From IMG/VR virus record IMGVR_UViG_3300045988_142835, positions 1 through 41,278 of that record: a DNA stretch of 41,278 nucleotides. The stretch is one strand, 5' to 3'. Below, piece after piece: positions 16,747 through 39,266 of this stretch. Made by a program: the position numbers and the translations under genes. Numbering within the stretch: position 1 is the stretch's first letter; each line of letters opens with the position of its first letter. Source of the DNA: a virus. The notes below the pieces were generated by a model. That model worked only from the letters and a program-made list of their open reading frames with translations, searched no databases and was not told the origin of the DNA.

Positions 16747-17377
16747 ACGGGCGGTTTTTCAGCCATTCGCTGGGGGACATCATCCCCTGCCCGCCGTTTC
16801 TCAGGCGGGAAGCTCCCGCCGCCTGAGTAATCCCCGTGACGCGCGAGCACGCCACTTGGGTGAGGCCAGGATGCATGGCGCAAAGCCACCGGACTAGCAT
16901 CGTCCAGTGCTTCGGCTTCGCGCCACGCAACGCCTCAACAACGTCGTCCGTGAAAACGTCGGCGTATTTTTCGGGGATCACGCCCAGCAGATCCCTTTCT
17001 CTGGCGCGGCTTCTGCGATGGGCGTCTGCGGCGCAGACTCGGCATTGGACTGCCCCGGTGGTGCGGATCCTCCGCCCGTACTTCCTCAGGGAATGTCCGC
17101 GGGAGCACATGGCGTCCGCGTCGACGTCTTCCAGCTCATACGGCACGCGGGTTTCCGACATGTGCGACGGGTTCACGCATGCGGGGTTCCCACACGCGAC
17201 GGGGAAGAGACGAGGCGGGGCGTTTCTCCCGGTCACCGCCTCATAGACAAGTTTTCTAACGCCCCTGTATCCCTTTTCCGGGATGAGAACTCGCGGGGAC
17301 GAATCGTACGCGACTTCCCCGTACCAGGGCCAGCACGCCGTCTCTGCGGCGCGGGCCTCGTAGTTCCTGTAGTCCAT
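16745..17377 (-). CDS. Degenerate His-Me finger (HNH_3-like) protein with Zn-loop and C-terminal HTH
   Basis: Start MDYRNYE one nt after the upstream stop. CWPWYGEV...GYRGV and VACGNPACVNPSHM resemble the HNH_3 signature but lack the usual His/Asp. CSRGH...CRVC loop; HTH CSRVTGITQAAGASRL. Confidence 0.55.
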   Translation of the reverse strand: MDYRNYEARAAETACWPWYGEVAYDSSPRVLIPEKGYRGVRKLVYEAVTGRNAPPRLFPVACGNPACVNPSHMSETRVPYELEDVDADAMCSRGHSLRKYGRRIRTTGAVQCRVCAADAHRRSRARERDLLGVIPEKYADVFTDDVVEALRGAKPKHWTMLVRWLCAMHPGLTQVACSRVTGITQAAGASRLRNGGQGMMSPSEWLKNRP

Positions 17378-17378
17378 C

Positions 17379-17762
17379 TCAGATCCTATCCTCGGCGGCT
17401 TCGAGAACGTCGTCGAAATCTGAGCCAGAGTAGAAAATGTCGACAAGTTCGCCGACAACCTCGAAGAATTCCTCGTCGTCGTCGATGATCTCGGCGGTCT
17501 CGGGGAGGATCAGCACCTCGCCCAAGGTGGCGTCCACGGGGCGGTCGGGGGACTTGGGTCCCTCGATCTTGACGAGGACCGGGGATCCGGCGTCGATGCC
17601 GGATGTGGCGACGTAGGCGGCGAGTTCAGCGAGCGTCCGGCACCCGCTGACGCCCCGGCGGACTTCATCATCCGCGCCGCCCATGGGGTAGGACCACTGG
17701 TTCTCGGCGACGGTGAGGTCGGCGACGTTGCGGTCTTTGTCTTGGATCCTGTAGGCGATCAT
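17379..17762 (-). CDS. Hypothetical acidic protein A (127 aa)
   Basis: MIAYRIQDKDRNV... ATG 17762 preceded by GGAAAGGAAG. The upstream part of track ORF 17379..17864 covers the promoter/leader. Confidence 0.6.
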   Translation of the reverse strand: MIAYRIQDKDRNVADLTVAENQWSYPMGGADDEVRRGVSGCRTLAELAAYVATSGIDAGSPVLVKIEGPKSPDRPVDATLGEVLILPETAEIIDDDEEFFEVVGELVDIFYSGSDFDDVLEAAEDRI

Positions 17763-17778
17763 TTCGATCTTCCTTTCC

Positions 17779-17840
17779 GTCTTGCTGGGACCTTCCCTTG
17801 CTGACACTTCTAGTCTACAGGCTTGCAGCACACACTGCAA
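17779..17840 (-). promoter_or_regulatory. Cassette A: promoter TTGCAG-17-TAGACT plus 5' leader stem-loop
   Basis: Minus sense: -35 17840-17835, -10 17817-12, then GTC agcaa GGGA agg TCCC agcaa GAC (17805-17779). Confidence 0.6.
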
Positions 17841-17848
17841 GCCTGTAG
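17815..17848. repeat. 34-bp perfect palindrome (14-bp arms, 6-nt spacer)
   Basis: CTACAGGCTTGCAG cacaca CTGCAAGCCTGTAG. Overlaps the -35/spacer/-10 of cassette A and lies 13 nt past the stop of gene 17861..18235. Confidence 0.9.
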
Positions 17849-17860
17849 GTGTGGGGCGAG

Positions 17861-18235
17861 TCACTTATAATCGTGGAGGCGGGCGTACCCGGCCTCCACG
17901 GAGATCCCCGAAGCGCGCGAGCAGTCAGCGATCGATGCTCCACGGTGCCGGTCCACTAGCCGCCGCACGATCGCCGACCACTCCGCCGGGCAATCGACGA
18001 CGCCGCGCAGCTCGGCGACGTCGTTCTCCGAAATGCCCTCCTCGCTTCGGAGCCCGGCCACCCATTTGCCGATGGTGAGCCGGTGGACGCCGGTCGCCTC
18101 CGCGATCTCCGTCGCTGTCTTCCCGCTCTGCCACGCACGCTGCACGCGCAGCGCGAGCCTGGCTTTGGCGTCATCGGCGACTTTCTGGGCGGCCTTGTAG
18201 GACGCGGCGGCGTCCGCGAGCGCAGCATCGCTCAT
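17861..18235 (-). CDS. DNA-binding protein with two HTH motifs
   Basis: 124 aa; KTATEIAEATGVHRLTIGKWV and CSRASGISVEAGYARL. ATGA overlap with the upstream gene. Confidence 0.6.
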   Translation of the reverse strand: MSDAALADAAASYKAAQKVADDAKARLALRVQRAWQSGKTATEIAEATGVHRLTIGKWVAGLRSEEGISENDVAELRGVVDCPAEWSAIVRRLVDRHRGASIADCSRASGISVEAGYARLHDYK

Positions 18236-18633
18236 TTAATATTCTCCTTCCATTCGGCCCGGACGTTGACGCCGTGCAGCGCTAGCCCGGTCATGATCGC
18301 GGCGACGGCGGCGGAGTGCTCATAAAGCGTCTCGCCGCCGCCTTCGTCCGCAGCGTGTGCTTCGGGAGTGCGGTAGGCGTGGATGGTCACGCCATCGCAC
18401 GCTTCCTCGCCCTCTTCGAAGAGAAGTTCAAGCGTCCCGTCGATCCCGGACATTACCCGGTCGACGAACCGCCGCCACCATTTGGTGACAGACTCGGCGG
18501 CGTCGTCGGGGACGGGGACGCGCCCAGACTCCCAATCGTTGAGCGTATCCTTCGACACGCCGAGCCGGGCGGCGACGTGGCCTTTCGGGATGCCCATCGC
18601 CCGCCGCCGAAAGGCGAGCGTTGCACCGGTCAT
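18232..18633 (-). CDS. XRE-family HTH protein with unknown C-terminal domain
   Basis: 133 aa; N-terminal RRRAMGIPKGHVAARLGVSKDTLNDWESGR. SD AGAAAGGA upstream. Confidence 0.65.
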   Translation of the reverse strand: MTGATLAFRRRAMGIPKGHVAARLGVSKDTLNDWESGRVPVPDDAAESVTKWWRRFVDRVMSGIDGTLELLFEEGEEACDGVTIHAYRTPEAHAADEGGGETLYEHSAAVAAIMTGLALHGVNVRAEWKENIK

Positions 18634-18652
18634 TTTGATTCCTTTCTGTAGT

Positions 18653-18678
18653 GCGGGGGAGCCCTAGGGCTCCCCCGC
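18653..18678. terminator. Perfect GC-rich hairpin downstream of gene B
   Basis: GCGGGGGAGCCC ta GGGCTCCCCCGC. The T-rich tail is on the + strand only. Resembles the 16709 hairpin and its flank. Confidence 0.55.
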
Positions 18679-18687
18679 TTCCTTCGT

Positions 18688-19338
18688 TTACTCGGTTGCG
18701 GCGCGGATCTCGCCGATCAACCAGTTAGCGTACTTTGCGGCAAGATCAGACTTCCTCTGATCGTCGGCAAGCTCGTTCCCTTCGAGGGAATCCTGGAAAT
18801 TTTGATCGAAGTAGGGGGCGGGCTCCCCGTCCTCGCGGTAGTAGGTGGAGATGAAATAGAATCCCGCACCTTCGAAATCCTGGAAGTCGACCGACACGCC
18901 GAACCCTCCAACTTCGATTCCCCTGGCGGACCCGTCTTCGTCGGCGAAGATTTCGGTTTCCTCGATCTCGGCTTCGGGGAATTCAACTTCCACCCTTTCG
19001 TAGATATCGTCAAGAATTTCTCGGGGGAAGTCGAAGTCTTCCTGCCAGCCGAGAAGGTACTCCACGAAGTGGTCGACGATTGCCTCATCGTAGTTGTCGG
19101 ATTCGGCACTGGAGGGGATGATTTTCATTCCCTCGTAGTCGAGGGTGACGTGGCACGAGTCGTTAGGCCACGCGATTCCTGGGACGATGCGGAGGTTGCC
19201 TTCGCGGTCTTTTGTGACTTCCACGAAGCGTTGGTGGTTCGAGACCACCGTATCCCCTTCGGTTTTCGTGTCCCTATCAAGGTAGTCCTTGAGAGAAACC
19301 GCTACCTGGATTTCTTCGATGAGTTCTTTGGTTTCCAT
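18688..19338 (-). CDS. Hypothetical highly acidic protein B (216 aa)
   Basis: METKELIEEI...; hand count 54 D/E versus 17 K/R. Visibly lower GC than its neighbours. Has its own promoter and hairpin. Confidence 0.7.
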   Translation of the reverse strand: METKELIEEIQVAVSLKDYLDRDTKTEGDTVVSNHQRFVEVTKDREGNLRIVPGIAWPNDSCHVTLDYEGMKIIPSSAESDNYDEAIVDHFVEYLLGWQEDFDFPREILDDIYERVEVEFPEAEIEETEIFADEDGSARGIEVGGFGVSVDFQDFEGAGFYFISTYYREDGEPAPYFDQNFQDSLEGNELADDQRKSDLAAKYANWLIGEIRAATE

Positions 19339-19355
19339 TTGGATCAGTCCTTTCT

Positions 19356-19421
19356 GTCTTGCTGGGAGGCTTTCTCCCTTGCTGACGCCTCTAGTCTACA
19401 GGCGCGATGCACGTACGTCAA
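19356..19421 (-). promoter_or_regulatory. Cassette B: promoter TTGACG-17-TAGACT plus 5' leader stem-loop
   Basis: Minus sense: -35 19421-16, -10 19398-93, then GTC agcaa GGGAG aaagc CTCCC agcaa GAC (19386-19356). Confidence 0.65.
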
Positions 19422-19522
19422 ACCTTTGCGACAAAAAGTGGCACACGTCATGTCGTTGTGAAAAGCCCCAGCACTACCCCCACACTACCGCCAGCGCAAT
19501 CGTGTACCCGTTTTGTGCGATT

Positions 19523-19544
19523 TGGCTAAAAGAGTGGCTAAAAA
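19523..19544 (+). repeat. Arm-type site candidates, pair 1 (TGGCTAAAAG ag TGGCTAAAAA)
   Basis: Direct repeat with 12-bp periodicity. Confidence 0.6.
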
Positions 19545-19708
19545 CGACACCTTTCGCACCCATTGAAAGAGCCGAAACGTTCGAGATGCAAACCGCGAGC
19601 GTGCGCGAAAGGCGATGGGATAGGAGAGAGAACTCGCTCACCACCCTAGCGACATCGGGTTGATAACGCCATGCGATAGACTGGAACCGCGCAAACCCGC
19701 AGAATACC

Positions 19709-19730
19709 GCCAAAAGATGACGCTTTTGGC
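19709..19730. repeat. Candidate attP core: GCCAAAAG atgacg CTTTTGGC
   Basis: Perfect 8-bp inverted repeats around a 6-bp spacer, the geometry expected for tyrosine-recombinase core sites. Confidence 0.4.
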
Positions 19731-19772
19731 ATTGCGAAAAGCCGTGGTGGTACGCTGGGAACACGCCCACAA

Positions 19773-19794
19773 TGGCTAAAAGAATGGCTAAAAG
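19773..19794 (+). repeat. Arm-type site candidates, pair 2 (TGGCTAAAAG aa TGGCTAAAAG)
   Basis: Same 10-mer and spacing as pair 1, 15 nt upstream of the int start. Confidence 0.6.
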
Positions 19795-19808
19795 AAAGGA
19801 TCACGGGA

Positions 19809-21026
19809 ATGGCTCGCCCCAAATACCAGCTGCCCCACGGCGAGGGCAGCTTCTACCACCGCACAAGCGACGACCGGTGGGTCGGCGTCCTCGAAGCCGG
19901 ATGGACCGCGCGCGGCACCCGCCGCCGCATCACCGTCACCGACAAAAACAAGCAGCGCTGCTGGGACAAGCTGACCGTCAAGCGGAAGCAGCTCGCGAAG
20001 GAAGGCGCAGCGCCCGACGGCGTGCGCGCCGGAGCCACCGTCGCCTCATGGGCCACCGAATGGCTCGCACGCGGCGAGAAATCCATGAAACCGTCCACGT
20101 ACAAAGCGTACGCGGCTACCGTGCGCACCTGGATCATCCCGACGGTCGGACGCCGCCGCCTCGCCCAGCTCGGCCCGCAGGACATGCGCGCCCTCACCGG
20201 CGCGATGGACGCCGCCGGACGCTCGTCGACGTCGCAGGGGCAGGCGCAGCGGCTCCTCGCGAAAATACTCCGCGACGCGATCGTCGAGGGACACGACGTG
20301 CCCCAGCGGGCGCTCCTCGCCCCCGCCCCGAAAAACGCCGTCACCGCCCGGTGCGCGATCCCGTTCGAGGACGCCATGCGAATCCTCGACGTCGTGCGCG
20401 CCCGCCCGGACGCCTCCCGATGGGTCGCCGCCCTGTTGCAGGGGCAGCGGCAGGGCGAAACGCTCGGCCTCACATGGGAGTGCGTAGACCTTGACGCCGG
20501 GACGATCACGGTCGCCTGGCAGCTGCAAAAGCTCAAGTACACGGACCGGGAGGCGGGGGCTTTTCGCGTCCCGGCGGGCTATGAGACTCGGCAGTTGCAC
20601 GGCGCGTGGCATCTGGTCCGCCCGAAATCGAGGGCGGGCTGGCGGACGACGCCGATCGTTCCGTGGATGCGCGCCCAGCTTGAGGCGATCCGCCCGGCGG
20701 ACGCGACCGGGCTCGTGTGGCACCGGCCCGACGGTCGCCCGCTCATCCCAGAGGAGGATCGACGCGAGTGGCGGGCGATCCAGGACGCCGCCGGAGTCCA
20801 CAAGGGCGGCAGCGGCACTCCTGAGGACCCATGGGTCTACTACGTGCTCCACGAGGCGAGGCACACGACGGCGACGCTTCTCCTCGCGGCGCACGTGGAC
20901 CCTGAGGTGATCAAAGCGATTCTCGGTCACTCATCGATCGTCACCACCGCTGGGTATCAGCACGTCGACGTCGGCATGGCCCGGTCCGCGCTCGACGGGC
21001 TCGCGTCCCGGCTCGGCCTCCAATAG
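19809..21026 (+). CDS. int: Tyrosine integrase
   Basis: 405 aa; catalytic pattern R (LQGQRQGETLGL), HxxR (LHEARHTTAT), H...Y (LGHSSIVTTAGYQHV). SD GAAAGGA upstream. Confidence 0.9.
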   Translation: MARPKYQLPHGEGSFYHRTSDDRWVGVLEAGWTARGTRRRITVTDKNKQRCWDKLTVKRKQLAKEGAAPDGVRAGATVASWATEWLARGEKSMKPSTYKAYAATVRTWIIPTVGRRRLAQLGPQDMRALTGAMDAAGRSSTSQGQAQRLLAKILRDAIVEGHDVPQRALLAPAPKNAVTARCAIPFEDAMRILDVVRARPDASRWVAALLQGQRQGETLGLTWECVDLDAGTITVAWQLQKLKYTDREAGAFRVPAGYETRQLHGAWHLVRPKSRAGWRTTPIVPWMRAQLEAIRPADATGLVWHRPDGRPLIPEEDRREWRAIQDAAGVHKGGSGTPEDPWVYYVLHEARHTTATLLLAAHVDPEVIKAILGHSSIVTTAGYQHVDVGMARSALDGLASRLGLQ

Positions 21027-21063
21027 AAAAGAACCCCCTCCCGATATGGGAGGGGGCTTTTTC
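21027..21063. terminator. Bidirectional intrinsic terminator between int and gene C
   Basis: GAAAAGAA CCCCCTCCC gatat GGGAGGGGG CTTTTTC: 9-bp stem with an A-run on one side and a T-run on the other. Confidence 0.85.
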
Positions 21064-21554
21064 TACTTGAGCGAGTTCACACATTGCCTCGCCCATTGTC
21101 TACCGCCCGGGTAGACTTCCATGCGGACGCCCGGCGGGAAAAACCGGGACGATTTGATCTTGGTCGTGTGGACGCCCGCCGCGAGGTCGTCGACGTCGAT
21201 GTGGAGTTCCTGGTCGCCGCGCCGCCAGATGTGCGGCGCGAGGTCCGCGTCGACGTCGATCCCCTGCCGGTCGATTTCCGCCTCGATGAATTCGACGAGC
21301 GACTTGTAGGGCTCGTAGTCGTCGCGCCAGCCGTTCAGGTAGGCGGCGGCCTCGTCGACTCGCTCCTCGTCGGTTTTCGACGACGGCTTCCCGTCGCCAA
21401 ACTCCCACACAAGCTTGTCCGCGCCGTCGTCCCAGACGTTGACGTACCGGGACGCGACCCAGACTTGGTAGAGCCCAACATGCTCGGTGATTTGCGCCCC
21501 GGGCACGGCGTCGCGAATCTCGTCGGCGAACCATTCGGCGTCAGTCTCGATCAT
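21063..21554 (-). CDS. Hypothetical acidic protein C (163 aa)
   Basis: MIETDAEWFADEIRD...; hand count 33 D/E versus 18 K/R. ATG 21554 overlaps the stop of a 10-codon upstream ORF. The upstream part of track ORF 21063..21659 covers the leader. Confidence 0.6.
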   Translation of the reverse strand: MIETDAEWFADEIRDAVPGAQITEHVGLYQVWVASRYVNVWDDGADKLVWEFGDGKPSSKTDEERVDEAAAYLNGWRDDYEPYKSLVEFIEAEIDRQGIDVDADLAPHIWRRGDQELHIDVDDLAAGVHTTKIKSSRFFPPGVRMEVYPGGRQWARQCVNSLK

Positions 21555-21583
21555 TCTCCCGCCACCCTTGAGGTAGTTTCCAT
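21551..21583 (-). CDS. Upstream leader ORF METTSRVAGE (10 codons), coupled to gene C
   Basis: ATG 21583 lies 8 nt after GAAAGGA. Its stop TGA overlaps the gene C start as ATGA. The first 8 nt, ATGGAAAC, match the start of gene B. Confidence 0.4.
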   Translation of the reverse strand: METTSRVAGE

Positions 21584-21600
21584 TTTTGTTTTCCTTTCTT

Positions 21601-21666
21601 GTCCGTGTGGGGGACCGTCCCCCTCGCTGACGTCTATAGTCTAGTAGTGTAGGCTTCACCCCTCAA
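21601..21666 (-). promoter_or_regulatory. Cassette C: promoter TTGAGG-17-TAGACT plus 5' leader stem-loop
   Basis: Minus sense: -35 21666-61, -10 21643-38, then GTC agcga GGGGGA cgg TCCCCC acacg GAC (21631-21601). Confidence 0.6.
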
Positions 21667-21700
21667 CTCCGCGTGTGTGAACTACTACACAACTTTAGGC

Positions 21701-21768
21701 TTGACGTGGTGGTTGCGAACCCATAGACTAGAGATGTCAACACGGAGGGACAAGCCCTCCACCAAGAC
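21701..21768 (+). promoter_or_regulatory. Cassette D: promoter TTGACG-17-TAGACT plus 5' leader stem-loop
   Basis: -35 21701-06, -10 21724-29, then GTC aacac GGAGGG acaag CCCTCC accaa GAC (21736-21768). Divergent from cassette C. Confidence 0.65.
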
Positions 21769-21786
21769 CCATAGGAAGGAAGTCAA

Positions 21787-22578
21787 ATGGACTCCGCAAT
21801 CATCATCCCAGATTTCAACATCGTCTCTCCCCGCCGCGTTCCTGCGGTGCGCGGCTACTGGTTCTCCGAAAGCCAGGAAGACCTAGACGCCCGCGAAGCC
21901 CGGCTCCGCGCCGGGAACTTCGTCCACCTACACAAGCGCGGCGAGCAGCCCCGCGACCTCGAAAAGTCTCCGTACCCCAAGCCTTGGGCTTGGGAAGCAC
22001 TCAAAGCGGCGGAAGCGGCAGAAGCCGCCGCACACGAGGCCGAGCGCTGGATCTCCGACCTCGAAACAGCTGTAGGCCGCACAATCGCCGACGCCAAAGG
22101 CGTTGACCAGTCGCGGGCGGACTGGTTCACGCCCAAGATCGAAATCGATCTCAATGGTCCTTATGGGATGCAAATGGTCTGGATCAAGTCTGATCGCGGG
22201 CTGAAGGTCCGCACATCGGCTGATAGCCTGACCCTTTCTGAAGCTGTGCGCCTCACCGGGTATCTTCAGGAACGCCTGGATGGCTGGGAGCGCGAGATCC
22301 TTGGATCGTTCCCGGCGGACGCGCTCGGACTCGCGGCGTCATACGGCACCGCGCTCGGCGAGCGAGCCACCCATATCCTTCTCTACGCCGACGGGGAGTG
22401 CATTGGGCACCTCCCGGCGACCGGCACCTACGAGGAAAACCTGGCGGAGGCGCAGCGCGTCTACCGCGAGATAGAAGCCTCTTGGGCAATGGTCACGCCC
22501 AAGTACCCCCGCTCACCGTGGTCGGCGGACTCTGCCGAGTCCCCGTGGACGCCGGACACGCCAGAGTTGGCGGAGTGA
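21787..22578 (+). CDS. Hypothetical protein D (263 aa)
   Basis: SD GGAAGGAAG upstream. Central region VWIKSDRGLKV...GYLQERLDGWEREI resembles B and C. Confidence 0.65.
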   Translation: MDSAIIIPDFNIVSPRRVPAVRGYWFSESQEDLDAREARLRAGNFVHLHKRGEQPRDLEKSPYPKPWAWEALKAAEAAEAAAHEAERWISDLETAVGRTIADAKGVDQSRADWFTPKIEIDLNGPYGMQMVWIKSDRGLKVRTSADSLTLSEAVRLTGYLQERLDGWEREILGSFPADALGLAASYGTALGERATHILLYADGECIGHLPATGTYEENLAEAQRVYREIEASWAMVTPKYPRSPWSADSAESPWTPDTPELAE

Positions 22579-22678
22579 CCTACCGCCCGGGGTTGGCGTA
22601 GTCGGGATCGTTCCCCGACCCCGGGCCTATCCTCCCGTGCGACGGGCGCGCGGGAGACTGATTGAAAGGAAAACAAAA

Positions 22679-22996
22679 ATGGATTACGTGAAGAACGACG
22701 CCCAATGGGCGATGGTAACGCTCGGGATGATGATCAGGGTTGAGGGGATCGAGCCGGTCATGGAGAACCGGAAGAAGATCCCAGCGAACCTCATTAGCTG
22801 CACTGAGCGCCTTTGTGGAGTGAAGATGACTCCCGAGCGGATCGCTCAGTCCGTCTCCTACGCGACCAATCTCGCCGACGACGATCCCGTCGGCGACAAG
22901 ATGCGGGAGGAGGCAGACGCCTACTCCAAGGCGTACAACGCCCAGAGGCAAACTGACCTCCAATGGGCGGACGCCATTCGAAACGGGGCCGTCTAG
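22679..22996 (+). CDS. Hypothetical protein E (105 aa)
   Basis: MDYVKNDAQW...; ATG 22679 after GAAAGGAAAACAAAA. Shares a transcription unit with D. Confidence 0.6.
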   Translation: MDYVKNDAQWAMVTLGMMIRVEGIEPVMENRKKIPANLISCTERLCGVKMTPERIAQSVSYATNLADDDPVGDKMREEADAYSKAYNAQRQTDLQWADAIRNGAV

Positions 22997-23006
22997 CAGC
23001 AAGTTT

Positions 23007-23095
23007 GAAGCCCGCTCCTCGTGCGTGTGAGGGGCGGGCTTCTTTGCGCCCGAAGTGCGTGTTTCGGGCGGTTCAGGGTTGTTTTTTGGGGTTTT
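23007..23095 (+). terminator. Tandem hairpin terminators after gene E
   Basis: 14-bp stem 23007-20/23029-42 and 8-bp stem 23047-54/23063-70. Both have the loop GTGCGTGT and are followed by T-runs (GTTGTTTTTTGGGGTTTT). Confidence 0.7.
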
Positions 23096-23124
23096 CGCGG
23101 CGTAGAAGGGGAAGGGCGGTTGTT

Positions 23125-23373
23125 TTACGCGGTTCGCCGTTCCGCAAGTTCGAGGACGTCGACGGGCGCGAGGTCGAGTGTCCGGCAGATTGACTGGAAC
23201 TCGCCGATGGTGACGGGCGATTCCATGGCGAGGATCTTGCGGAGGCGTCCGCGTGTGATCCCCGCGTAGTCGGCGAGTGAGCGCACGCTCATGCTGACGG
23301 CGCTCATGCGCCGCGTGACTTGTCCAACAATATCTTCCTCGACGGAGGAAGTTTCCAGCCGCTTCGTTCCCAT
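23125..23373 (-). CDS. CI-like immunity repressor candidate (XRE HTH, 82 aa)
   Basis: SVRSLADYAGITRGRLRKIL HTH; divergent from a cro-like gene across a 128-bp operator region. Confidence 0.65.
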   Translation of the reverse strand: MGTKRLETSSVEEDIVGQVTRRMSAVSMSVRSLADYAGITRGRLRKILAMESPVTIGEFQSICRTLDLAPVDVLELAERRTA

Positions 23374-23388
23374 ACCCTCAGTGAATCA

Positions 23389-23403
23389 TATCTGAGTCGG
23401 ATA
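23389..23403. promoter_or_regulatory. Operator candidate O1 (TATCTGAGTCGGATA)
   Basis: TATC-N7-GATA within the direct repeat CATATCTGAGTCGGATACAC. Overlaps a minus-strand TATGAT -10 candidate (23390-85). Confidence 0.5.
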
Positions 23404-23412
23404 CACAATGGG

Positions 23413-23442
23413 TTGCGTTACCCATATCAGATCTGATACACT
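23413..23442 (+). promoter_or_regulatory. Early rightward promoter candidate TTGCGT-18-TACACT
   Basis: -35 23413-18, -10 23437-42. Operator O2 fills the spacer. Confidence 0.5.
23425..23438. promoter_or_regulatory. Operator candidate O2 (perfect palindrome TATCAGATCTGATA)
   Basis: 14-bp perfect palindrome within CATATCAGATCTGATACAC, a repeat of the O1 context. Confidence 0.55.
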
Positions 23443-23456
23443 CTTGTGCGCAAGGC

Positions 23457-23472
23457 GGGCTCAATTGAGCCC
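23457..23472. promoter_or_regulatory. 16-bp perfect palindrome GGGCTCAATTGAGCCC in the cro leader
   Basis: Lies between the -10 candidate and the cro SD (AGGAAGGAGG). Either a second operator type or an RNA hairpin. Confidence 0.4.
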
Positions 23473-23501
23473 ACCACTCACCACAACAGGAAGGAGGCTC
23501 A

Positions 23502-23717
23502 ATGAGCATCGCGAGCGAAATCCGCGCCGAAATGGCCCGGAAAAAGCTCACCGTCGCCGAACTGGCGGACGGCGCGGGCATCTCCCGCGCGTCCCTCAGC
23601 CGCAAGCTCCACGAGCACACCGAGTTAACACTCGCCGAGCTTGTGCGGATCGCGTACATCCTCGGCACCACCGCATCGGATCTCATGCGCCGGACAGAGG
23701 TCGGGGAAGCCGCATGA
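23502..23717 (+). CDS. Cro-like HTH regulator (71 aa)
   Basis: LTVAELADGAGISRASLSRKL HTH; strong SD; first gene of the rightward operon. Confidence 0.7.
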   Translation: MSIASEIRAEMARKKLTVAELADGAGISRASLSRKLHEHTELTLAELVRIAYILGTTASDLMRRTEVGEAA

Positions 23718-24025
23718 GAGCCCGCGAAGAAGCCGCCGCTTACGCGGGCCGTGCTTGGCTCGAAATGAGCCGCGCCGACCGCCGCCGGGCTGTGAGGCTC
23801 ATGCGCCGGATCCGTGCCAACAAAGCGGCTCGGCAGCTCAGGCCCGGTTGCAAGGGGCCGTCGGCGTTCCTGCAAGCCGCTCACTGGCGGCTCCTGGCCG
23901 AGTTTTTCGCCCTCATCGAAAAGAGCGAGCGGCGACTCTATACGTCCAGGGAAGCTCGGGAAACCGCCGAAAAATGCGCGTACATCTACCACACGCAAGC
24001 CAACAAGAAAGGAAAACCGGAATGA
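23714..24025 (+). CDS. Hypothetical protein (103 aa)
   Basis: ATGA overlap with cro. MRAREEAAAYAGRAWLEMSRADRRRAVRLMRR...; paralogous to the next gene. Confidence 0.55.
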   Translation: MRAREEAAAYAGRAWLEMSRADRRRAVRLMRRIRANKAARQLRPGCKGPSAFLQAAHWRLLAEFFALIEKSERRLYTSREARETAEKCAYIYHTQANKKGKPE

Positions 24026-33042: not shown

Positions 33043-34031
33043 CTAGGCCTTACGCGAAGATCGACGTGCTGTGGGCTCAGTCTCCCAAATGGTTCGCCGT
33101 GGACGCCTACCTGAGAGAAGCTTTCCAGTCCGCCATGCCCGGCGCGACCAAAGCCGAAATGCAAACAGCAATGCAACTTGCATTGCAGAATGCAATGCAC
33201 CTGCATTTGGTGAGCATCCTCTACAGCGCCCAAAATATGACTGACGGCACATTTCTGGTCGCGGCAGTCAAAGGCATAGGAAGGTGTGTATACGAGGAAT
33301 CCGTAGACGCACTATTCCATAGCGGACTCTGGGAGAACCTTCCCGGCGGACTGGCGCAAGTACACGACTATCTCGACTATCAGACATCCGCGAAAGCCCG
33401 GAAAGAAGCCTCCGAACGAGGCAGAAAAAAGGCCGAAAGCAGATGGTCTCAAAAAAACTCCGATGCAGACTGCAATGCAAACAGCAATGCAAACTGCAAT
33501 GGTAAGAATAAGAATAAGAATATATATGTAGTAGATACTGACGTATCTACTACGTTAAACGTTCAAGATTCGCCTTCGGAGCCGAAACCAGCCGAGACGC
33601 CCACACCCGATCCCGAGCCCGAACCACGCCCCGACGTCGACGCCGTGATCGACGCCTTCCAGGCATCCCTCACCGCCCGAGGCGTCAAACGCGGACGCGT
33701 CACCAAGACCTGGCGGGAAGCCGCGAGGCTCATGCTCGACCGCGACGGACGCACCGTCCCCGAGATCCAGGCCCTCTGCGAATGGCTCGTCGAGGATGAC
33801 TTCTGGCGCAAAAACGTGCTCGCCCTGCCCAAGCTGCGCCAGCGCTACGACCAGCTCCGCCTCGCCATGGAAGCCCCCCGCCGTCGCGCCGACGGGACAA
33901 CAGCGCTCATGTCCCGAGGGCAACGCGCCGCCCTCGCAGACTTCCAGCGCTCCCGTGCCGAACGCCTCGCCCGCGAAGCAACCGCCCCCACCCAGCTGCT
34001 ACTCGGCCCCGCAGGAGGCGACGCCGCATGA
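33039..34031 (+). CDS. Putative replication initiator / replisome organiser (330 aa)
   Basis: GTGA-coupled start. Two domains joined by a low-complexity linker (CNANSNANCNGKNKNKNIYVV) encoded by an iteron/AT-rich DNA segment. Function inferred from this lambda-O-like layout. Confidence 0.45.
   Translation: MTRPYAKIDVLWAQSPKWFAVDAYLREAFQSAMPGATKAEMQTAMQLALQNAMHLHLVSILYSAQNMTDGTFLVAAVKGIGRCVYEESVDALFHSGLWENLPGGLAQVHDYLDYQTSAKARKEASERGRKKAESRWSQKNSDADCNANSNANCNGKNKNKNIYVVDTDVSTTLNVQDSPSEPKPAETPTPDPEPEPRPDVDAVIDAFQASLTARGVKRGRVTKTWREAARLMLDRDGRTVPEIQALCEWLVEDDFWRKNVLALPKLRQRYDQLRLAMEAPRRRADGTTALMSRGQRAALADFQRSRAERLAREATAPTQLLLGPAGGDAA
33158..33553. repeat. Candidate origin of replication: two iteron clusters, AT-rich tract, 11-bp inverted repeat
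   Basis: 12-mers ACAGCAATGCAA (33165-76, 33481-92), ACTGCAATGCAA (33469-80), ACTGCAATGGTA (33493-504), and inverted CTTGCATTGCAG (33177-88). Then AGAATA x3 plus TATATATG, and GTAGTAGATAC tgac GTATCTACTAC (33528-53). Confidence 0.55.
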
Positions 34032-38867: not shown

Positions 38868-39206
38868 ATGAGCATGCGACGCTGCCCAGCAAGCAAATGC
38901 CCAAGACTAATCAACAACAACCAACGCTACTGCACACAACACCAGGCAGAGTACGAGGCACGGCGCGGCACACCCACACAGCGCGGCTATGACGCAAGAC
39001 ACAGAGCGCTAAGAAGACAATGGCAAGCACACTTGCAACAACAAGGCAGCATGACATGCAACGTATGCAACCAACCAATAACACCACAACAATCATGGGA
39101 CCTAGACCACACCGACACTAGGGGCGGGTACCTAGGGCCAGCACACGCCACATGCAACCGCTCAAAAGGCGGAACAAAAGGCGCAAAAACAAAAAATAAA
39201 AAATAA
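38868..39206 (+). CDS. HNH endonuclease (terminase-associated)
   Basis: 112 aa; Cys pairs, DLDHTD...GPAHATCNRSKG core. Position immediately upstream of terS, as in HNH-dependent cos phages. Confidence 0.85.
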   Translation: MSMRRCPASKCPRLINNNQRYCTQHQAEYEARRGTPTQRGYDARHRALRRQWQAHLQQQGSMTCNVCNQPITPQQSWDLDHTDTRGGYLGPAHATCNRSKGGTKGAKTKNKK

Positions 39207-39266
39207 AAACAAACAAAACACACACAACAAACAAAAAAACAAACACACACAACACGAAAAAACCCA
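39184..39266 (+). repeat. A/C-only low-complexity tract with two about 18-bp imperfect direct repeats
   Basis: About 80 nt with only one G and two T on the + strand. AAACAAAACACACACAACAA and AAACAAACACACACAACACG repeats. Spans the HNH stop. Confidence 0.9.

Follow-up and report, generated by a model that had tools for sequence, protein, structure and literature searches.

Genes A to D and their products

The window analysed here is the whole 41,278-nt stretch of IMG/VR virus record IMGVR_UViG_3300045988_142835 (positions 1 to 41,278). This report concerns three of its genes, B, C and D, which lie between positions 18,688 and 22,578 around a phage integration module, together with a fourth gene, A, and the regulatory cassette that stands before each of the four. 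Gene B (18688–19338, minus strand) encodes an orphan protein of 216 aa, gene C (21063–21554, minus strand) an orphan of 163 aa and gene D (21787–22578, plus strand) an orphan of 263 aa. The open reading frames (ORFs) and coordinates assigned to these genes in an initial annotation, which was made from the sequence, were verified, and so were their positions: B lies beside the presumed phage attachment site (attP), and C and D lie between the integrase gene (int) and a divergent pair of helix-turn-helix (HTH) genes. Gene A (17379–17762, minus strand; 127 aa) is the fourth cassette-driven orphan and was found by sequence comparison to be unrelated to B, C or D.

B, C and D had been described as a strongly acidic trio, and the counts of D/E against K/R residues on which that description was based are exact (54 versus 17 in B, 33 versus 18 in C). 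Net charge and isoelectric point (pI) are −37 and 4.06 for B and −15 and 4.53 for C; D has 43 D/E against 29 K/R residues and a pI of 4.90, and A is very acidic (net −19, pI 4.05). When net charge per residue was compared with a rough gene set of the genome, B was an outlier (−0.17), whereas C was only moderately acidic (−0.09) and D ordinary (−0.05). The acidity of B is kept across its family; net charge was computed for four members and lies between −29 and −37. B is also lower in GC, as had been noted: its fraction is 0.547 (54.7%), against 0.64 in C and D and approximately 0.62 (62%) in the genome.

Twelve homologues of B (48–94% identity) were found, exclusively in metagenomes, and residues Y94, L95, W98 and D101 are invariant in the family. 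In an AlphaFold2 model (predicted local distance difference test, pLDDT, 73.9), B consists of two alpha+beta halves linked by an acidic helical hairpin at residues 80–119 (helices 80–96 and 106–119). No internal duplication was found in B. The C family is tiny, with three database matches that are all near-identical. The D family (21 homologues, 36–90% identity) is more diverse than the B family, and its most conserved block, in an alignment of 22 members, is THILLY..GxCxGHLP. The AlphaFold2 model of D (pLDDT 68.8) starts with a disordered N-terminus and a long helix, after which comes a small alpha/beta core.

D ends in a disordered acidic Ser/Pro/Thr tail (SPWSADSAESPWTPDTPELAE; 22510–22578, plus strand). 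A tail of this type (SPWSADSAESPxTPDTPESAGSAE) is common to most D-family members and to one B-family member, P0012. Directly after the D tail stands a hairpin with a conserved ATCGTT loop (GGCGTAG-TCGGG-ATCGTT-CCCCGA), tail and hairpin together occupying 22510–22625 (plus strand), and similar ATCGTT-type hairpins recur between the early genes of two related contigs, L020 and L022. The tail/hairpin region is possibly a boundary of recombination or else an element that acts as RNA. A 291-aa protein from public assemblies, P0023, consists of an internal stretch of the integrase, beginning near residue 93, that is fused at a shared 'PADA' microhomology to the last third of D. This protein is probably an assembly chimera or the product of an int-D deletion, and it is the reason why the hidden Markov model (HMM) of the D family matched int.

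Scans of A, B, C, D and g119 against Pfam, PHROGs, NCBIfam and PADLOC returned nothing meaningful, with 0 PADLOC families at E values up to 1; ChaN for C and DUF7158 for D were sub-threshold chance matches in these family scans. No match was obtained by tblastn of B, C, D and HTH133 (the HTH gene that follows B) against GenBank phages (50,697 records), PDB sequence searches with the B, C and D family profiles gave nothing credible, and GTDB genome scans for B and D recovered no relatives. An exhaustive HMMER search with the B profile against 1.84 billion representative proteins returned one cluster, B's own. Foldseek comparisons of the B model with PDB and BFVD and of the D model with PDB gave nothing at E ≤ 1e-3, and the D model had no PDB match below E 1. 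In BFVD, the B model had only half-length matches, to uncharacterised phage proteins of approximately 100 aa. The other Foldseek matches of B, of PUR/Whirly/RnlA type, were noise with low template modelling (TM) scores.

The regulatory cassette

As had been stated, B, C and D are each preceded by a conserved cassette. In all, the genome contains exactly four of them, against 0.16 expected by chance, and the remaining one stands before A. Each copy runs TTGnnn, a 17-nt spacer, TAGACT, a GTCAGCAAGG box, a G-run/C-run hairpin, AGCAAGAC, a GAAAGGA-type ribosome-binding site (RBS) and ATG. Judged by these elements, the cassette comprises a predicted host sigma-70-type promoter, a 5' leader with secondary structure and an RBS at a fixed distance from the ATG.

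The B cassette (19339–19425, minus strand) has the −35 element TTGACG (19421–19416), the 17-nt spacer and the −10 element TAGACT (19398–19393), followed by the hairpin GGGAG-AAAGC-CTCCC, the RBS GAAAGGA and the ATG at 19338. The cassettes of C and D stand back to back. That of D (21701–21786, plus strand) carries TTGACG (21701–21706), TAGACT (21724–21729), the hairpin GGAGGG-ACAAG-CCCTCC, an RBS and the ATG at 21787. That of C (21551–21666, minus strand) carries TTGAGG (21666–21661), TAGACT (21643–21638), the hairpin GGGGGAC-GG-TCCCCC and an RBS, and its RBS-proximal ATG (21583) opens a 10-codon upstream ORF, METTSRVAGE*, the stop of which overlaps the ATG of C as ATGA. In relatives C continues in the frame of the RBS-proximal ATG (METLRGVRMIETD... 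or METLWVADE...), so the window has an indel at the 5' end of C (21551–21583, minus strand), and this could represent translational coupling, early decay or an assembly error.

In the A cassette (17763–17847, minus strand), TTGCAG and TAGACT (17817–17812) are followed by the hairpin GGGA-AGG-TCCC. Its promoter additionally contains a perfect 12-bp inverted repeat, ACAGGCTTGCAG-N6-CTGCAAGCCTGT (17818–17847, minus strand), which extends from the −35 element to just before the −10 element. The repeat is kept in relatives while its spacer sequence varies, and it looks like an operator.

The leader hairpin was compared across 19 distinct copies from the phage and its relatives. Ninety-five percent of the cells in its six pairs are paired, against at most 77% in slid controls, and double compensatory changes occur in three of the six pairs. 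On folding, the stem was lengthened through the conserved flanks. An Rfam scan of the cassette found no family.

Between the divergent HTH genes downstream of D, positions 23388–23445 (plus strand) contain two operator-like repeats, ATATCTGAGTCGGATACAC and ATATCAGATCTGATACAC. These genes, the 82-aa rep82 and the 71-aa cro71, form a putative repressor/cro switch at 23125–23717. Their operator-like repeats were sought in the four cassettes, and nothing similar was found. The translation-start context GAAAGGAAAAC-N4-5-ATG recurs on the plus strand before several early genes, at 22664, 24005, 24594, 35539 and 36726, and is found in front of the cassette genes as well. It may represent a strong RBS common to these genes or a start-associated sequence.

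Kinship of B, C and D

The initial annotation had united B, C and D in a threefold paralogue family sharing a YLxGW segment. The B–C half of that proposal stands. BLASTP aligned the two proteins at E 4e-5 (33% identity over 82 aa), and their Smith-Waterman score was 75, against 34 ± 5.5 for global shuffles and 35 ± 6 for shuffles of 10- or 20-residue blocks, which preserve local composition (p approximately 3e-5 to 1e-4). When the B-family HMM (13 members) was run against the 633 stop-to-stop six-frame ORFs of the window, C was the sole non-self match (E 0.0018; next E 11). The score of the real C sequence was attained by 1 of 2000 block-shuffled and by 0 of 2000 fully shuffled versions of it.

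The similarity is contained wholly within residues 79–135 of B (18934–19104, minus strand; DEAIVDHFVEYLLGWQEDFDFP...VEVEFPEAEI), the most acidic part of that protein, and residues 57–104 of C (DEERVDEAAAYLNGWRDDYEPY...VEFIEAEI). The shared acidic segment is 45–55 aa long with the motif YLxGW[QR][ED]D and is predicted to be helical in B, where it corresponds to the acidic helical hairpin between the two halves of the model. The four residues invariant in the B family coincide with identities to C. The kinship of B and C is real but local.

D did not join them. BLASTP of D against B or C was not significant, and shuffle p values were 0.04–0.06 for B–D and 0.15–0.18 for C–D. Profile-profile comparison of the family alignments with hhalign gave nothing for D in the motif region, neither the B nor the C HMM found D among the 633 ORFs, and a joint HMM of the B and C segments, run on 4641 ORFs of related phages, recovered no member of the D family. 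All that is left of the supposed motif in the alignment of 22 D-family sequences is [YF]L-x(4-6)-W, in which only the W and the aromatic-Leu pair are kept, the spacing is variable and no acidic positions are conserved after the W. YLxGW is accordingly not a pattern of all three families, and D, as far as these comparisons reach, is not demonstrably related to B or C and belongs to a separate, diversified family with its own paralogues in relatives.

Replacement of the cassette genes in relatives

Among close relatives (integrase 88–99% identical; HTH133, repressor and cro 76–99% identical), the cassettes are kept and the genes behind them are replaced. The integrase identities were computed for the relatives other than the element represented by L001–L004. 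The A slot, meaning the position behind that cassette, contains A, a protein of 85–87 aa or, in the L001–L004 element only, a protein of 112 aa. The B slot contains either B or a 107-aa zinc-ribbon protein together with a 129-aa protein. In the C slot, C alternates with proteins of 460/436 aa or 362 aa and, in L014, with a D-type protein. The D slot contains divergent D-type proteins, two of them in tandem in L019. The cassette thus drives at least six unrelated orphan cargo types in relatives. No Pfam domains were found among the alternative cargo, and the joint B+C segment HMM did not extend the YLxGW-type motif to the 460-aa and 362-aa proteins. A metagenome scan with the cassette pattern returned mostly chance matches; two new cargo types were left after filtering, both orphan.

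Because the same slots carry unrelated cargo in relatives, the cassette is not the signature of one protein family, contrary to the view that a single element served a single diversified family. It is a portable module from which accessory genes are expressed and behind which they can be exchanged. Any subset of B, C and D can be present in a relative (B may be missing where C and D are kept, and D also occurs where C is missing), so the three are not an obligate set.

B- and D-type genes were also found in a second lineage. L020 and L022 are syntenic, with an early operon (ERF, DUF3799, two WhiB genes and a methylase) divergent from the terminase and no integrase in the stretch examined. The B-family protein P0012 and the D-family protein P0025 occupy one slot in this pair, three to four genes into the operon. 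The contigs cease to be homologous at the DNA level before the slot and become so again inside the sequence coding for the acidic Ser/Pro/Thr tail (L020 1402–1470; L022 7688–7756). Since the tail is shared in the swapped slot, hhalign linked the B and D alignments through the C-terminal tail only. B- and D-type proteins are thus exchangeable alleles and not homologues, and their exchangeability may reflect similar roles. Genes of both types are able to sit in an early lytic operon.

HTH133 and its resemblance to Aca2

HTH133 (18232–18633, minus strand) begins 54 nt after B and combines an N-terminal Xre-type HTH (Pfam HTH_31, E 2.7e-7) with a C-terminal domain that is remotely Aca2/YdiL-like. 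A second HTH protein, HTH124 (17861–18235, minus strand), is encoded next; the end of the HTH133 gene overlaps the beginning of this one, which places HTH124 in one transcription unit with B. HTH133 is 90–99% identical in close relatives and 69–71% identical in the L001–L004 element, and it is kept where the B slot holds other genes. The variable genes, whether B or the 107-aa and 129-aa pair, lie on the same strand upstream of this conserved gene and behind one promoter. Read from the sequence, the B slot thus seems to have the anatomy of an anti-CRISPR (acr) and anti-CRISPR-associated (aca) locus, with a putative strong promoter, variable orphan gene(s) and a conserved Aca2/YdiL-like HTH gene.

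The Pfam model Aca2_YdiL matched HTH133 at E 0.038, below the gathering score, and it matched all six members of the HTH133 family at sub-threshold level (best E 0.0027). The best PDB sequence match of HTH133 was Aca2 entry 7ezy, at E 6.9e-4 with the single sequence and 3.5e-4 with a six-member profile. This alignment is near full length (residues 10–112), taking in both WESGRxPVPDD and the YRT region at the C-terminus. Three more Aca2 entries stood lower in the same list. The resemblance to Aca2 is suggestive but not conclusive.

Comparison with known systems

In the acr-aca2 operons, of which acrIF8-aca2 of Pectobacterium phage ZF40 is an example, a strong promoter, small variable orphan gene(s) and a conserved HTH gene with a C-terminal domain likewise occur together. 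Aca2 represses acr-aca promoters through an inverted repeat and, in addition, binds hairpins of the 5' untranslated region and thereby blocks translation; an Aca2 'actino-motif' exists (PMC13551039). In such loci the RNA motif begins directly after the transcription start site, the DNA motif overlaps the promoter and the position of the start codon is conserved, and it is predicted that several operons near one another, with mostly uncharacterised genes, can be under the control of a single Aca (PMC13551039). The anatomy of the present locus appears to fit this architecture: its hairpin stands directly after the predicted transcription start, its start-codon position is fixed, and the same element is repeated before neighbouring operons that have no HTH gene (PMC13551039). 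It differs in that the HTH133 match is remote and sub-threshold, in having a single hairpin against the two bound by ZF40 Aca2, in the cargo, which is larger than typical Acrs and is not known to inhibit CRISPR, and in flanking an actinophage integration module.

T7 Ocr and ArdA, DNA mimics of the kind that the acidity of B calls to mind, resemble B as a cytoplasmic protein of comparable negative charge density (25% D/E, net −37, pI 4.06; a comparison of bulk charge only) encoded by an accessory gene behind a strong promoter. B has no sequence or fold similarity to them in Pfam, PHROG and NCBIfam or in Foldseek searches of PDB and BFVD, and C is only moderately acidic and D ordinary.

The defence loci reported for Cluster N mycobacteriophages (PMC6544188, PMC10700106) are similar in that temperate actinophages carry hypervariable orphans near their integration and immunity modules, each with its own promoter. 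Unlike them, the present locus has no known defence domain, includes an Aca2-like regulator and has the same protein families in an early operon elsewhere. Cluster K mycobacteriophages have start-associated and extended start-associated sequences (SAS/ESAS), a conserved element just upstream of some start codons accompanied by an inverted repeat with a variable spacer; these have been linked to gene expression, their exact function not being established (PMC3203893). Compared with them by description, the cassette differs in having a full sigma-70-type promoter, in occurring in four copies only and in serving swappable accessory genes only.

Possible functions of the cassette genes

The reading that we favour, with a probability of roughly 0.4, is that A, B, C and D are accessory orphan cargo of moron type, used for early counter-defence under Aca-type control. 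Under this reading the cassette genes would be expressed early by host RNA polymerase, and their products would inhibit, in stoichiometric fashion, complexes of the host that serve defence or bind DNA. B might do so by charge or DNA mimicry through its highly acidic surface, and the Aca2-like HTH would feed back on the promoter/leader element common to all four slots. In favour of this reading are the exchange of cargo among close relatives, the four cassettes with their covarying leader hairpin, the resemblance of HTH133 to Aca2, the replacement of P0012 by P0025 in the early operon of the second lineage, the acidity kept throughout the B family and the lack of any PADLOC match. While the anatomy of the locus is firm, the timing of expression, the regulation by HTH133 and the anti-defence activity and its target are what we infer from the arrangement. 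Related to this, a solitary Cas8e homologue in the element L001 (described below) suggests that this phage group is in conflict with type I-E CRISPR, and it was counted in favour of counter-defence. A more specific version, in which the four slots form an Aca2-type anti-defence regulon, B, joined by C through the acidic segment that they share, founds a new family of charge-mimic inhibitors directed against a DNA-targeting defence of the host (type I-E Cascade, say, or a restriction complex), and D represents a second, independent inhibitor family that replaces B at the same locus, is speculative and on balance unlikely.

Several observations weigh against the favoured reading. The Aca2 assignment is weak, with a Pfam score below gathering and PDB E values of only 3.5e-4 to 7e-4, and the HTH gene is present in the slot of B only; Xre-type HTH proteins are ubiquitous in phage switches. 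A clear inverted repeat overlapping the promoter occurs in the A slot alone. B (216 aa) and D (263 aa) exceed most Acrs in size, and acidity is not general among the alternative cargo. None of the homologues of B, C and D has a known function, and Foldseek gave no structural match of the B and D models to a known Acr, Ocr or ArdA. In addition, a position between int and the repressor, combined with promoters lacking repeats like the rep/cro operators, fits lysogenic expression equally well.

This last point leads to prophage-expressed defence or superinfection exclusion, constitutive in the lysogen from host-type promoters and directed against heterotypic phages, which we consider a doubtful though serious alternative. 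In its favour, int and the divergent HTH pair enclose C and D, B is on the other side of the presumed attP, the promoters are sigma-70-like and free of rep/cro operator-like repeats, and the slots are hypervariable among close relatives. Precedents are the variable central regions of Cluster N mycobacteriophages (PMC6544188) and the Cluster N prophage Butters, which is reported to defend against another phage (PMC10700106). The proteins, however, are soluble and acidic, contain no PADLOC, Pfam or NCBIfam defence domain and have no sequence or structure match to a known enzyme family. An Aca2-like gene follows B, and B- and D-like genes lie near the head of an early operon in the other lineage, within a stretch that has no integrase. 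Counter-defence was preferred because of the missing PADLOC match, the Aca2-like HTH after B and the early-operon genes. The evidence points toward early counter-defence, and neither role is demonstrated by it. A part in phage–host interaction, as proposed in the initial annotation, is still the best guess, with counter-defence now placed before the prophage-expressed defence suggested there.

Other accessory roles, such as host takeover, modulation of lysis-lysogeny or of integration-excision together with the two HTH proteins, or selfish morons that lack a strong phenotype, are also improbable in our estimation. Many early phage genes are dispensable, all of the cargo is orphan and without functional signal, and B is co-transcribed with two HTH regulators beside attP and int. 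Nevertheless, phages that are near-identical in their integration and immunity modules have exchanged the cargo, which argues against a role inside those modules, and the strong, conserved expression signals and family-specific conserved residues argue for selected functions.

It is very improbable that B, C and D all descend as true paralogues from one ancient family, D having diverged past detection, and form a single three-component system: the local B–C similarity, the marginal B–D score (p approximately 0.05), the beta strands set before a helix ending YL..W in both the B and D models and the tail and slot shared by B- and D-type proteins in L020/L022 are set against profile-profile and HMM tests that find no B–D or C–D relation, a D motif alignment that needs two indels within 25 residues and whose acidic positions are unconserved in the D family, the occurrence of any subset of the three in relatives, and the location of the shared tail within conserved flanking DNA, which may indicate recombination and not common descent.

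B, C and D are best filed as undescribed protein families in a kind of locus that is already known, that of Aca-associated or moron accessory gene cassettes. If early counter-defence is the correct reading, oral Actinomycetaceae phages, close relatives of which are absent from GenBank phage records, would supply several new, structurally unmatched candidate anti-defence families, and the locus would be a compact case in which four slots with swappable cargo answer to one Aca-like regulator. The cassette would then serve as a search handle, and any gene behind it in related phages would become a counter-defence candidate. If that reading fails, an apparent three-member paralogue family has still been resolved into two members that share a segment and an unrelated family.

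Phage genome, host group and integration module

Both ends of the 41,278-nt window carry an exact 55-nt repeat, which indicates a circularly assembled, complete genome of approximately 41.2 kb. The portal protein is 47% identical to an Arthrobacter phage portal and approximately 35% identical to Mycobacterium phage portals, and the actinophage nature of the genome is evident from this protein only. Megablast of positions 17000–24000 (7 kb) gave no nucleotide match among GenBank phages. All close relatives come from metagenome assemblies or IMG/VR viral contigs, and for one contig a human oral metagenome is named. One related element, L001, is integrated at a tRNA-Leu gene beside a bacterial fhaA-fhaB-pstP-ftsW cluster, and proteins of that bacterium share 90%-identity clusters with Peptidiphaga gingivicola and Actinomyces sp. 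oral taxon 848. Based on the portal matches, the oral relatives and this related prophage beside Actinomycetaceae-type genes, the phage is a temperate siphovirus-type actinophage of oral Actinomycetaceae.

The host of L001 is of Peptidiphaga / Actinomyces oral taxon 848 type, and its tRNA-Leu(CAG) gene lies at L001 16417–16502. Just inside this attachment site, a solitary Cse1/Cas8e homologue (L001 13784–15148, minus strand; Pfam E 1e-34) is flanked by HTH124-like and HNH-like phage genes, and no other cas genes were called within approximately 3 kb of it. The solitary Cas8e, which might be a Cascade decoy or an anti-CRISPR, implies that the phage group interacts in some way with type I-E CRISPR-Cas.

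In the window, the tyrosine integrase (405 aa; 19809–21026, plus strand) was identified by Pfam Phage_integrase at E 1.4e-13. The low-GC intergenic region between B and int (19426–19808) is the presumed attP and contains TGGCTAAAAGA direct repeats at 19523, 19773 and 19785, which resemble arm-type sites. The tRNA-Leu attachment site of L001 was considered for this phage as well and had no match to the presumed attP. A bidirectional terminator-like hairpin (21032–21058) separates the convergent int and C genes.

Two further features were observed outside the integration module. Near a strand switch, positions 39175–39262 comprise approximately 90 nt of A/C-rich low-complexity sequence (CAAAAACAAAAAATAAAAAAT...ACACACAAC) and lie in a low-GC region with a strong AT skew. 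The early region contains two clusters of AATGCAA(A/C)... repeats spaced at 12 nt (33158–33209 and 33462–33501), approximately 280 nt apart, which are iteron-like and may mark the replication origin.

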